From an uncultured Enterobacteriaceae bacterium (GTDB taxonomy: Bacteria; Myxococcota_A; UBA9042), in contig CAZLMW010000059.1 in assembly GCA_964560875.1 (NCBI GenBank), positions 3,208 through 45,532 on the forward strand: a DNA stretch of 42,325 nt. The letters are read 5' to 3'. Each line of letters starts with the position of its first letter. Positions within the stretch are counted from its first letter, which is position 1. Below, piece after piece: positions 17,899 to 20,461 of the stretch. The notes under the pieces were generated by a model, which was given only the letters and a program-made list of their open reading frames with translations, did no database searches and had not been told where the DNA came from. A program made the translations under genes and the position numbers.

Positions 17899-19263
17899 GT
17901 GATCGACCTGCGATTTCACGCTGGCACCGTTGAGCTTCGCGGCGTCGATGACGCATCGGACTTGCTGACCCCCGACTGGGCCTGGGACCCGCGAACCGGG
18001 TGCCACCGCGCGCCCGCCAGCGCCTATCCACACGTGGTCATGAAGCTGCATCGGCGGCGCATTCGGTACGACGACAAGGCCCGCAACTATGCGACGCTCG
18101 AGGCGAACCTGGTCGACAAGCGCTCGCTGCGGCCCTACCAGGTGCAAGCGCTGGATGCCTGGAAGAAAGCGGGCGGACGCGGCGTCGTGGTGCTGCCAAC
18201 GGGCGCGGGAAAGAGCCTTGTCGCTGTTCACGCGATCGCGGTGGCCAAACGCAGCGCGCTGGTCGTCGCCCCGACTTTGGATCTCGTTCGCCAATGGTAC
18301 GACACGCTGCTCGGCGCGTTTGGCGGTGAAATCGGCGTGATCGGCGGCGGTGAGCACCGGCGGGAGACCTTGACGGTCACGACGTACGAGTCCGCCTGGA
18401 TGCACATGGAGCACATGGGCGCGCGCTTTGGCACGGTCGTCTTCGATGAATGCCATCACTTGCCTACCGCTTCGCACACGCTCGCCGCGATGCAGAGCCT
18501 TGCGCCGTTCCGGCTCGGTCTGACGGCGACTCCCGAACGCCCCGATGGCCGCGAGGCGGACCTGCAGGAGCTGATCGGCGCGACCGTCTATCGGCGTGAC
18601 ATCGTGGAGCTGAGCGGCCGCTGGCTGGCCGAATACGACGTCGAGCGGATCGTCGTCGAGCTGACCGATGCCGAACGAGACGCGTACGTCGAAGCGCGGT
18701 CTATCTACCGGGATTTCCTGCGCCGCAACGGCATTCGAGTTGGTGCGCGCGGCGGTTGGTCCGACTTCATCATGCGCGCCGCCCGCAGCGATTGGGGCCG
18801 CCAGGCGATGGATGCGTGGCGTCGCAGCAAGTCCCTGTCATTGGCAGCCGAGGCCAAGTTCGAGCGCCTCGACGACCTGCTCGCGGCCCACAGCGGCGAC
18901 CGGATGTTGATCTTCACCCAGACCAACGCGACGGCCTACGAGATCGCGCGCCGATTCCTCGTCCCCGTCATCACGCACCACACCAAGGTCACCGAGCGCA
19001 GCGCGATCCTCAAAGGTCTGCGCGAAGGCACGTACACCGCCGTGGTCACATCCAAGGTGCTCAACGAGGGCGTCGATGTGCCCGAGGCGAACGTCGCAGT
19101 GGTGGTTTCCGGCAGCGGGTCCGTGCGGGAACACGTGCAGCGGCTCGGGCGCGTTCTGCGGCCACGTGAGGGCAAGCGCGCCATCCTGTACGAGTTGGTG
19201 GCCGAGGACACCGCCGAGCTCTTCACAAGCACGCGACGGCGGGACCACATTGCTTACCGTTGA
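17899..19263 (+). CDS. xpb: XPB/ERCC3/Rad25-type superfamily-2 DNA helicase
   Basis: The N-terminal ~60 aa resemble an XPB damage-recognition region. Helicase motifs are present: RPYQ (Q/Ia), LPTGAGKS (Walker A), DECHH (motif II, DEcH), LGLTATP (III) and QRLGRVLR (VI). The start is GTG. It overlaps the next gene by 14 nt. Confidence 0.8.
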   Translation: MIDLRFHAGTVELRGVDDASDLLTPDWAWDPRTGCHRAPASAYPHVVMKLHRRRIRYDDKARNYATLEANLVDKRSLRPYQVQALDAWKKAGGRGVVVLPTGAGKSLVAVHAIAVAKRSALVVAPTLDLVRQWYDTLLGAFGGEIGVIGGGEHRRETLTVTTYESAWMHMEHMGARFGTVVFDECHHLPTASHTLAAMQSLAPFRLGLTATPERPDGREADLQELIGATVYRRDIVELSGRWLAEYDVERIVVELTDAERDAYVEARSIYRDFLRRNGIRVGARGGWSDFIMRAARSDWGRQAMDAWRRSKSLSLAAEAKFERLDDLLAAHSGDRMLIFTQTNATAYEIARRFLVPVITHHTKVTERSAILKGLREGTYTAVVTSKVLNEGVDVPEANVAVVVSGSGSVREHVQRLGRVLRPREGKRAILYELVAEDTAELFTSTRRRDHIAYR

Positions 19264-20461
19264 CCTCGTGAACGCGACTCGGCGAGGCGATCGGCTGCAT
19301 GTCGCGCGGCTGTCGGGTAAACGCAAGAAGCGCGCGATCGAGATAGCAGCCGCGGTTGTCGCGACGATCGAGTCGTTTGCCGATGCGGATGAAAAGGGCA
19401 GTCGGGGCGAGATCGAGAACGCGCTGGACGGCCTGGAGGTGGCGCCCCGCGATCGCAAGTTGCTGCGAGGTTTGGCGAGACTGGCCCTGCAGCGCTGCGA
19501 ATTCGACGTCGCCGAAGGACCGGAGCCGCGGCAGCTGCGCATCGACGTGTTCGAATCTGCTGCACGCGCCCGGCACGAGGCTGGTGATGGCCGAATCGAT
19601 CGCGGCGCCATCATCGGCGACATCGCGACGCGGCACGGAATCGAGGCGGCGGCTGTCGAAAGCAGCCTGTTCGCCGACCTCAAGTCGACGCATCGCCTCG
19701 TGTCCATGGAGCCGGTCAACGCCGAGAATCTTGCCGAACAATGGGAGCTCGGCCAGCGACAGGCTGTGCTCTTGCGCGCAACCCGCGTGGTCGTCGACGT
19801 CTTCGCGCGGGACGCGACGGTGTATCGGCGCCTCTTTGCCCGACTGAAGTTCCGCCGCTTGTTGTGGCAGCTCAAACCCCTCGAAAACGGATACCGACTC
19901 ACCATCGACGGTCCGTTTTCGCTGTTCACTGCGTCGACCCGGTACGGACTTGCCCTGGCCCTCCTGCTGCCTGCTTTGCACGAATGCGACAAGTTCGAGC
20001 TGCGCGCCGATGTGCTCTGGGGCAAAAACCGCCGCCCGCTGAAGTTCCACCTCGATGGCAAGAAGACCAGCGTGGACGCGCCGTTACGCCTTTCGGACGA
20101 CGTTCAGCGGCTGATCGATGGCGTCAACAAGGCCAAAGGATCCTGGGCTGCGTATCCCGCCGAAGCGATCTACGACCTCCCCGGCGTCGGGCTCTGCGTC
20201 CCCGATGTGCGGCTCGAGCATCCCGAACACGGTGTCGTGCACGTCGAGGTGCTGGGATATTGGAGCCGAGACGCGGTCTGGAAACGGGTGGAATTGGTGC
20301 AGGCGGGGCTCGCCGAGCGCGTCATTTTCTGCGCAAGCACGCGGTTGCGGGTCAGCCAGGACGTCTTGCCCGATGACGTCCCGAGCGCGCTTCATGTCTA
20401 CAAGGGCGTGATCCACGCGAAGCTGTTGCTCAGCGCCGCCGAGGACGTCGCAAGCCGCTGA
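19250..20461 (+). CDS. bax1: Bax1-like nuclease (DUF790 family, an XPB-associated endonuclease)
   Basis: A TTG at 19250 gives MLTVDLVNATRRGDRLHVARL.., the DUF790-type N-terminus. The protein is about 400 aa. It has a PD-(D/E)xK-like C-terminal region (CVPDVRLEHPEHGVVHVEVLGYWSRD). It overlaps the 3' end of the XPB gene, which indicates translational coupling. Confidence 0.65.
   Translation: MLTVDLVNATRRGDRLHVARLSGKRKKRAIEIAAAVVATIESFADADEKGSRGEIENALDGLEVAPRDRKLLRGLARLALQRCEFDVAEGPEPRQLRIDVFESAARARHEAGDGRIDRGAIIGDIATRHGIEAAAVESSLFADLKSTHRLVSMEPVNAENLAEQWELGQRQAVLLRATRVVVDVFARDATVYRRLFARLKFRRLLWQLKPLENGYRLTIDGPFSLFTASTRYGLALALLLPALHECDKFELRADVLWGKNRRPLKFHLDGKKTSVDAPLRLSDDVQRLIDGVNKAKGSWAAYPAEAIYDLPGVGLCVPDVRLEHPEHGVVHVEVLGYWSRDAVWKRVELVQAGLAERVIFCASTRLRVSQDVLPDDVPSALHVYKGVIHAKLLLSAAEDVASR

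Follow-up and report, generated by a model that had tools for sequence, protein, structure and literature searches.

A bacterial XPB-Bax1 helicase-nuclease gene pair, predicted to be translationally coupled and probably serving resident genome maintenance

Does a bacterium carry a complete XPB-Bax1 helicase-nuclease pair, which the literature treats as an archaeal module with an unclear cellular job, and if so what would the pair do there? We addressed this question with a 42,325-nucleotide stretch of DNA from an uncultured bacterium labelled Enterobacteriaceae (GTDB lineage Myxococcota_A; UBA9042; contig CAZLMW010000059.1 of assembly GCA_964560875.1, positions 3,208 to 45,532), hereafter called the window. 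Two adjacent genes on its + strand were analyzed: xpb (17899-19263), an open reading frame (ORF) with a GTG start that encodes 454 aa, and bax1 (19250-20461), which starts with TTG (ttg ctt acc gtt gac, read as MLTVD) and encodes 403 aa. Both have the codon bias of real genes, with a G+C fraction at third codon positions (GC3) of 0.83 for xpb and 0.78 for bax1, and the same two genes with the same overlap were called on an identical public metagenome contig (ENA ERZ27251152, 68,959 bp). An earlier note, made from the window sequence alone, had read them as an XPB-type helicase coupled to a DUF790/Bax1-type nuclease, a combination that it thought uncommon in a bacterium, probably horizontally acquired and equally suited to repair or to defence. 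Our analysis indicates that the pair probably forms a resident, translationally coupled bacterial XPB-Bax1 heterodimer for genome maintenance, which would open and cut bubble or fork DNA.

The 454-aa protein contains every helicase motif that the earlier note had listed (RPYQ, PTGAGKS, DECHH, LGLTATP and QRLGRV). Its XPB-like N-terminus was matched by the Pfam model of the XPB damage-recognition domain (DRD; PF18458) at residues 4-61 (17908-18081), covering profile positions 1-57 of 57 with an E-value of 1e-13 and 51 bits against a cutoff of 26. The other Pfam matches were ResIII at residues 76-214 (E=3e-25), DEAD, ERCC3_RAD25_C at residues 309-451 (E=2e-20) and Helicase_C at residues 320-422. 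They place helicase domain 1 (HD1) at residues ~76-214 (18124-18540) and helicase domain 2 (HD2) at residues ~311-449 (18829-19245). When PDB sequences were searched with phmmer, A. fulgidus XPB (AfXPB; 2fwr/6p66_A) matched residues 8-449 with an E-value of 7.7e-101 and S. tokodaii XPB2 (StXPB) matched with an E-value of about 3e-95. Yeast and human XPB matched in the C-terminal lobe only, at ~100 bits, while RecG and UvrB-type proteins reached an E-value of 1e-5 or worse.

To compare the proteins with their relatives, we searched a single genome for each GTDB species with two narrow peptide patterns; the best 80 of the 338 loci found were compared at the level of the locus, and the sequence comparisons used sets of 72-82 sequences. 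HD1 of the window protein carries motifs Q (RPYQ), I (PTGAGKS), Ia (VVAPT), II (DECHH) and III (LTAT), and HD2 carries motifs V (SKVLNEGVDVP) and VI (QRLGRVLR), the latter two being invariant or near-invariant among 72 homologues. Across all the helicase motifs checked in these 72 sequences from related loci, the core residues were invariant and the other positions varied only conservatively. The RED motif, located by alignment to R-E-D of AfXPB, reads R214-P215-D216 in the window (18538-18546). Its arginine was found in 72/72 homologues and its aspartate in 71/72, with a variable middle residue (A/T/Q/P), and the counterparts elsewhere read R-D-D in StXPB, R-P-D in Haloferax and R-S-D in Deinococcus. 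R-P-D is normal variation and not a defect.

Residues 241-311 align gap-free to the C-terminal half of AfXPB, and the total length of the two proteins also matches; the large thumb insertion is therefore present. We placed this thumb (ThM) at residues ~262-308 (18682-18822), with approximate boundaries carried over from the StXPB ThM (258-299) and the offset of the AfXPB alignment. Two curated NCBIfam models remained below their thresholds, with 206 bits against a cutoff of 610 for NF045503 (repair_heli_XPB) and 118 bits against 329 for TIGR00603 (rad25). From the profile lengths we take both to model the long actinobacterial and eukaryotic forms of XPB. Because the match to AfXPB is full, the scores fall far below the long-form cutoffs and M. 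tuberculosis XPB is built differently, the window helicase reads as a short, archaeal-type XPB/Rad25 helicase of superfamily 2 (SF2) with the layout DRD-HD1-thumb-HD2. Its identity to the XPB proteins that are partnered with DUF790 genes in A. fulgidus, Haloferax and Deinococcus is 40-46%. This placement within the XPB subtypes uses pairwise identities and curated-model scores, with few outgroup sequences.

The second protein had been proposed to belong to the DUF790/Bax1 family, and this was borne out. Pfam DUF790 (PF05626) matched it end to end, with residues 1-394 aligned to profile positions 1-384 of 387 at 242 bits (cutoff 28.8). All the solved Bax1 sequences were matched as well, with E-values of 2e-15 to 7e-11 from the single sequence and of 4e-37 to 2e-30 from a 23-sequence profile. 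An AlphaFold2 model built on a 23-sequence alignment had a pLDDT of 88 and a pTM of 0.77, and a Foldseek search of this model against the PDB at E<=1e-3 returned eight matches, all of them Bax1 chains (E 1e-23 to 6e-20). These superposed with a TM score of 0.62-0.64 over ~410 columns at 18-19% identity in the structural alignment. On the evidence of the model, the 403-aa protein has the Bax1 fold, which is made up of an N-terminal helical domain, a Cas2-like domain and a nuclease domain. The NCBIfam equivalog models for endonuclease Bax1, NF053694 and NF053695, gave 81 and 73 bits against a cutoff of 500; by these scores the bax1 product is homologous to the narrow equivalog families and lies outside them. 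The protein ends ~50 residues beyond the nuclease core and has 403 aa as compared to 468-501 in AfBax1 and StBax1, and the TMt score was 0.67 against truncated StBax1 and 0.56 against full-length AfBax1. From the length and the TM scores we infer that the archaeal C-terminal domain is absent from the window protein.

In AfBax1, the catalytic acids of the C-terminal nuclease have been assigned to E275, D305 and E318, and a second, N-terminal site that also contacts XPB to D133/E135 (DuPrez et al., PMC7293015). We assigned the C-terminal nuclease (NUS) domain of the window protein to residues ~283-351 (20096-20302) from the alignment to the archaeal sequences and from conservation. The PD-(D/E)xK-like character that the earlier note had seen in this region was confirmed for motifs II and III: in both a HMMER profile alignment and a MAFFT alignment, D319 of P318-D319 aligns with AfBax1 D305 and E333 of E333-V-L-G-Y-W aligns with AfBax1 E318, and each of the two residues is present in 82/82 members of the clade. 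At motif I the archaeal glutamate (AfBax1 E275, within D-S-x-[LV]-E) is faced by Q286, by a gap or by D290, depending on the alignment. Two conserved acids, D283-D284, sit 2-3 residues before this position; the residue at 283 is aspartate in 74 of the 82 clade members and glutamate in 5, and that at 284 is glutamate in 60 and aspartate in 20. At the N-terminal site, the archaeal D-x-E (AfBax1 D133-R-E135) reads D143-L144-K145 in the window (19676-19684), as placed by profile alignment to 6p66_B and by MAFFT. D143 is found in 82/82 clade members, while position 145 is R or K in 75/82 and acidic in none; the D-x-E is kept in Bax1 of Deinococcus, Haloferax, A. fulgidus, P. furiosus and S. tokodaii. 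Since position 145 holds a lysine or arginine instead of the second acid, we expect nuclease activity from the C-terminal site alone in Bax1 proteins of this clade. A D-x-K/R N-terminal site, a shifted motif I acid and the apparent loss of the C-terminal domain would together form a signature of Polyangia Bax1.

We then examined the junction of the two genes (19237-19263) by direct reading. The TGA stop of xpb occupies 19261-19263 and the TTG of bax1 begins at 19250, which gives an overlap of exactly 14 nt, as the earlier note had reported. A Shine-Dalgarno (SD)-like site, GGCGGGA, lies within the final xpb codons ahead of the bax1 TTG. An identical 14-nt overlap was found in 60/79 measured loci, with TTG or GTG starts predominant; in the remaining loci the two genes are 1-143 nt apart and bax1 mostly begins with ATG. 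An alignment of 61 junctions gave a GGAGG-like consensus at about -12 to -8, within the XPB codons for R-R-E, and the 14 nt that are coded twice were almost invariant (nTG CTT ACC GCT GA). The conserved GGAGG-like site and the near-invariant dual-coded segment therefore give direct sequence support for translational coupling of xpb and bax1, which we regard as the predicted mode of their expression.

How widespread is such a pair among bacteria? Relatives were present in 338 species-level genomes, and the best 80 came almost all from metagenome-assembled genomes (MAGs) of Myxococcota/Polyangia. In 78/80 of these best loci a gene for XPB, ~60% identical to that of the window, lies directly upstream of bax1. 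Among the candidates scored from a collection of 5.8 billion proteins, >1,700 Bax1 relatives were found at E<=1e-5; the top ones are 45-55% identical to the window protein and, where named, are called 'DUF790 family protein' of Myxococcales or Polyangiaceae. A phmmer search of 1.84 billion representatives identified 1,882 clusters (50% identity) at E<=1e-3, of which 377 passed E<=1e-30. A plasmid of Deinococcus wulumuqiensis R12 also carries the pair, again with a 14-nt overlap, and dozens of named Deinococcus species have DUF790 proteins that share 67-98% identity with the D. wulumuqiensis copy, some encoded on contigs of chromosome size and others on contigs of plasmid size. The pair was also detected on haloarchaeal megaplasmids, one copy near a transposase, and COG3372 had already been described beside COG1061 helicases in Archaea and Cyanobacteria (Kinch et al. 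2005). The description of the pair as uncommon in a bacterium thus did not stand. The pairwise identities of XPB and Bax1 are correlated across 72 loci (r=0.83), and Bax1 evolves faster than XPB (median identity 49% as compared to 66%). The comparison points to a conserved unit that co-diverges across Polyangia amid changing housekeeping neighbourhoods.

A few loci depart from this arrangement. In locus L066 (4279-6001), 1.7 kb separate xpb from bax1; one ORF in this insert has a metallo-beta-lactamase-like HxHxDH motif, and another, on the opposite strand, encodes hydrophobic stretches. Two other loci, L067 (1-1158) and L037 (1-527), have bax1 and no xpb in the available upstream sequence. 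Several MAGs with Polyangia-type pairs bear other labels, namely Enterobacteriaceae, Rickettsiales, Planctomycetota or Gemmatimonadota (L005, L054, L060 and L069). These four contigs are probably mis-binned or mislabelled, with Bax1 43-50% identical to that of the window, in the same range as Myxococcota-labelled loci.

The genomic surroundings of the pair were next analyzed for signs of mobility. Upstream lie a flotillin/Band_7 gene, two small ORFs without a Pfam match and a 192-aa ORF; downstream lie a TPR gene and then genes for an MlaD-like protein, an ABC ATPase and MlaE. The earlier note had described just these flanks, a flotillin on one side and an Mla-like operon on the other. The G+C fraction of the pair (0.65-0.67) is level with that of the flanks, with no step within the window, and the GC3 of the neighbouring genes (0.76-0.87) spans the same range as that of xpb and bax1. 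No tRNA, tmRNA or Rfam family was found in the window, and no integrase among the neighbours of the pair. A search for flanking direct or inverted repeats gave only short, imperfect two-copy matches of a kind that often arises by chance. The closest relative, L006, likewise has a Band_7 gene upstream of xpb.

In a wider comparison, ~576 crude ORF calls from 81 loci were clustered, and only XPB and Bax1 were widely shared. The commonest families among 78 immediate neighbours were amine oxidases, phosphoglucomutase, proteases, GGDEF and thioredoxin-like proteins, each in <=4 loci, and no integrases or transposases occurred among the recurrent Pfam families of these neighbours. The synteny check proposed in the earlier note, for a variable island or for co-occurrence with defence genes, thus gave metabolic and housekeeping neighbours in the related loci and no such enrichment. 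PADLOC produced only scattered generic matches in the 78 neighbours (a desaturase, MotB-like proteins and one DpdF-like helicase). Phage collections and IMG/VR held no copies of the pair, and the plasmid matches were limited to distant haloarchaeal and Deinococcus copies with 25-33% identity. These features suggest that the pair is resident and not borne on an island, and they do not indicate recent transfer; an ancient transfer between domains is possible.

The 192-aa ORF (17284-17862, + strand) ends 36 nt before xpb, and the earlier note had called it a secreted hypothetical. The ORF is indeed there: it encodes an N-terminal hydrophobic stretch and was also called in the identical public contig. 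It had no match in Pfam, NCBIfam or PADLOC and no homologue in any of 80 related loci, and it appears only in identical metagenome contigs. As a third component of the pair it was rejected, having no family match and no conservation in related loci, and we place it outside the module; it may be co-transcribed with xpb in the window. As a separate observation, an AT-rich TANNNT-like element (gctacaac, gctagatc, gctaatcat, gatataga and the like) lies within ~5-20 nt of the start codon of many related xpb genes, for example in L022, L028, L036, L004, L012 and L035. The window copy, which follows close behind the upstream ORF, is without it. The element suggests very short leaders or leaderless transcripts of these genes.

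What might the two proteins do together? The steps that we propose are carried over from archaeal structures and biochemistry, in which the thumb of XPB docks Bax1 and wedges the fork (PMC7293015, PMC7672443). Coupled translation would yield roughly 1:1 amounts of XPB and Bax1, and the N-terminal domain of Bax1 would dock on the thumb and HD2 of XPB. XPB would then clamp duplex DNA beside a distortion, bubble or fork, with the thumb wedged between the strands, and ATP hydrolysis would advance it and widen the opening. The C-terminal nuclease of Bax1 would finally nick the 5'-overhang arm at the junction. In the cell, the most likely role of such a heterodimer is accessory genome maintenance on bubble, fork or blocked-DNA structures, alongside UvrABC and not instead of it. 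We favour this role because of the resident chromosomal context, the lineage-wide retention of the pair, the lack of defence neighbours and the link to a RecQ-topoisomerase described below; restriction of foreign DNA is the less likely role.

Several observations weigh against a genome-maintenance heterodimer of this kind. Some concern the proteins themselves. Neither reaches the curated NCBIfam cutoffs for XPB and Bax1 equivalogs. In the alignments, the catalytic glutamate of motif I is without an unambiguous counterpart in the window Bax1, and the N-terminal site that aids XPB binding in A. fulgidus is altered to D-L-K, so that the interface with XPB may differ or be remodelled. Others concern regulation. 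Six LexA-box consensus patterns had no match within 250 nt upstream of xpb in 72 loci, and no k-mer was shared above the GC-rich background in the same 250 nt of these loci. A sigma-70 promoter scan of 16500-21000 found none, and terminator-like matches there were at chance level. The topoisomerase-RecQ neighbour of related loci is absent from the window. Genetic work on archaea also tells against a repair function: in S. islandicus and T. kodakarensis, mutation of XPB brings only a slight sensitivity to DNA damage, and UV repair in Halobacterium needs uvrABC and not its XPB homologues. Finally, our literature search (Bax1, DUF790, COG3372, and XPB of myxobacteria and Deinococcus) found no study of, or experiment on, a bacterial XPB-Bax1 pair.

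The topoisomerase link comes from the clustering of neighbours, in which the next cluster after XPB and Bax1 was a topoisomerase IA-RecQ fusion of ~1,355 aa that adjoins the pair in 8 of ~81 loci. Its domains are Toprim and Topoisom_bac in the topoisomerase part and DEAD, Helicase_C, RecQ_Zn_bind and HRDC in the RecQ part. The gene occurs in two arrangements, in which it either precedes xpb in divergent orientation or follows bax1 directly. It lies on the - strand in L004 (2488-6555), L063 (553-4539) and L071 (567-4568), and on the + strand in L032 (7239-11486), L046 (6778-10887) and L051 (from 4360), and is found in L079 and L083 as well. We consider it possible that this unusual fusion is a functional partner of the pair. 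A more specific version of the genome-maintenance reading can be built on it, in which a streamlined XPB-Bax1, having one nuclease site and a changed XPB interface and lacking the C-terminal domain, is inherited vertically throughout Polyangia and works with the topoisomerase IA-RecQ fusion in a fork, bubble or crosslink pathway outside UvrABC. We offer this version tentatively, as a possibility that falls well short of being probable. If the lineage-wide reading were true, bacteria would offer a setting in which to study the role of XPB-Bax1.

Of the rival explanations, the one that survives best is a two-gene defence against phages or plasmids, in which an XPB-like motor would track and open foreign DNA and a PD-(D/E)xK nuclease would destroy it. 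Against PbeA of PADLOC the helicase core reaches 168 bits, and the TIGR04095 model of the phosphorothioation-associated restriction helicase gives 128 bits. The PbeA match covers the helicase core only, and no modification or partner genes lie nearby; Bax1 and the 192-aa ORF had no PADLOC match at all (PADLOC-DB 2.0). A context in favour of defence was found in D. wulumuqiensis, on plasmid NZ_CP049360.1 (L085, 1-12993), where genes for a NERD-domain DEAD/DEAH helicase and a 3'-5' exonuclease flank the pair at one end, and a plasmid replication gene and a type I hsdR gene flank it at the other. Compared with the Polyangia context, this setting is more suggestive of defence or plasmid maintenance. 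The haloarchaeal megaplasmid copies, including the one near a transposase, point the same way, as do the archaeal knock-outs without a clear repair phenotype, and Kinch et al. (2005) left open a 'selfish character' of the family. Against defence stand the scattered, generic PADLOC matches of the 78 neighbours, among which integrases and transposases do not recur, the co-divergence of the pair as a unit in hundreds of species, the lack of copies in phage and viral collections and a window free of island signatures. The view that a variable island or an equal role in defence could apply was not supported, the immediate neighbours in related loci being metabolic or housekeeping genes, and the part about defence is kept alive by the Deinococcus plasmid with its type I restriction-modification gene. 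We regard a defence system as unlikely.

A second rival is that the pair is the core of a nucleotide excision repair (NER) pathway in the style of eukaryotes and archaea, which would remove UV and bulky lesions. In its favour, the DRD, the RED position and the thumb are all present and have been linked in archaeal work to the recognition of bubbles or damage, and archaeal XPB-Bax1 cuts bubble substrates in vitro (PMC7293015). Near the pair, neither the window nor the related loci contain XPD, XPF or another NER partner, and the LexA-box patterns that we tried are missing upstream of xpb. Myxococcota are known to have UvrABC. A literal NER role is improbable because archaeal XPB mutants are barely sensitive to damage, because UvrABC-bearing Halobacterium relies on uvrABC and can dispense with its XPB homologues, and because the host very probably has UvrABC itself. 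We rate it below defence.

The claim that the pair was probably acquired horizontally leads to a third rival, a recent insertion from an archaeon as the cargo of a mobile element between membrane-protein operons. The neighbourhood does differ between genomes, the window XPB is about equally distant from its archaeal and Deinococcus homologues (the 40-46% identity given above), and the family is best known from archaea. Against this rival, GC and GC3 are the same as in the flanking genes, and there is no tRNA, integrase or repeat beyond the short imperfect matches. The nearest relatives are all bacterial (Bax1 45-55% and XPB ~60% identical) and fall in one clade with its own signature. The co-divergence of the two proteins and the Band_7 gene shared with the closest relative also speak against it. 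A recent insert is thus very unlikely, and the claim of horizontal acquisition was not upheld.

The last rival, a RecG/UvsW/type III Res-like helicase beside an unrelated nuclease, has ResIII in its favour as the formally top-scoring Pfam domain, which reflects the generic SF2 N-terminal lobe, and is refuted by the XPB-specific DRD, by the full-length AfXPB alignment (E=8e-101 as compared to 1e-5 or worse for RecG and UvrB types) and by a second protein that matches DUF790 end to end and only Bax1 folds. Of the two findings that the earlier note had named as telling against its reading, a second protein outside DUF790/Bax1 or a helicase of RecG, UvsW or Res type, neither was made.

The window contains further features of interest away from the pair. 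Three SPFH/Band_7 genes were noted, two of them tandem paralogues (5122-7298, + strand) and the third encoding the 539-aa flotillin-like protein (14221-15840, - strand), together with a FIST-domain protein (8066-9202) and a DUF2279 lipoprotein. A second SF2 helicase of 904 aa (36055-38769, + strand) combines a DEAD/Helicase_C core with a large C-terminal DUF3516 domain (426 bits). An ORF of ~1,949 aa (27292-33141, - strand) has no recorded Pfam match in the public gene call of the identical contig and an unusual codon-position G+C content (GC1 0.53, GC3 0.87). Its region shows an AT skew of -0.25 to -0.37 and several high-GC3 ORFs on the opposite strand.

The window and the comparative data show that many Polyangia, a group of soil bacteria, have a complete, tightly coupled XPB-Bax1 pair as a stable chromosomal feature, present also in Deinococcus, beside the normal bacterial repair machinery. 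What XPB-Bax1 is for could thus be studied in bacteria, and the lost N-terminal acid, the shifted motif I and the occasional topoisomerase-RecQ link provide handles for a functional study. When genomes of such bacteria are annotated, a 'DEAD/DEAH box helicase' beside a 'DUF790 family protein' can safely be read as XPB and Bax1.

Among the nearest known systems is the archaeal XPB-Bax1 pair, represented by AfXPB-AfBax1 (PDB 6P66) and StXPB2-Bax1 (PDB 6P4O/6P4F), in which the nuclease gene directly follows the helicase gene as it does in the window. The helicases share the DRD-HD1-thumb-HD2 layout and a similar length, the 454-aa window protein being 40% identical to AfXPB, and the nucleases share the overall fold (TM 0.63), the motif II Asp and the motif III Glu. 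The window pair differs in its bacterial host, in a Bax1 that is only 18-19% identical and appears to lack the C-terminal domain, in D-L-K for D-x-E, in a motif I acid displaced by 2-3 residues and in a RED position that reads R-P-D. The plasmid pair of D. wulumuqiensis R12 (WP_025566640 and WP_017870384) is bacterial as well, with a helicase 45.5% and a DUF790 protein 31% identical to those of the window. The two share a short XPB-type helicase and an identical 14-nt overlap. In Deinococcus Bax1, unlike in the window protein, the N-terminal site still has the archaeal form, D-L-E, and motif I still reads D-S-x-L-E; some Deinococcus copies are plasmid-borne beside restriction-type genes, and they are annotated only as 'DUF790 family protein'.

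Other known systems share the helicase alone. M. tuberculosis XPB (Rv0861c type) and eukaryotic XPB/Rad25 have the SF2 core, the RED position and ERCC3_RAD25_C homology in common with the window protein. They carry a long N-terminal domain instead of the DRD and are without the full thumb, and no Bax1 complex had been identified for a bacterial XPB as of 2012 (PMC3353954). PbeA and the TIGR04095 family, whose cutoff is 600 bits, have an XPB-like helicase core homologous to that of the window; the PbeA match is limited to profile positions 240-632 of 672, and PbeA has its own N-terminal part where the window protein has the DRD. Unlike in Pbe/Dnd restriction, no Pbe or Dnd partner genes lie near the window pair, and its nuclease is a separate DUF790 protein. 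By this comparison the window pair is a homologue of archaeal XPB-Bax1 within a clade that has a sequence signature of its own, and databases already annotate such genes routinely.

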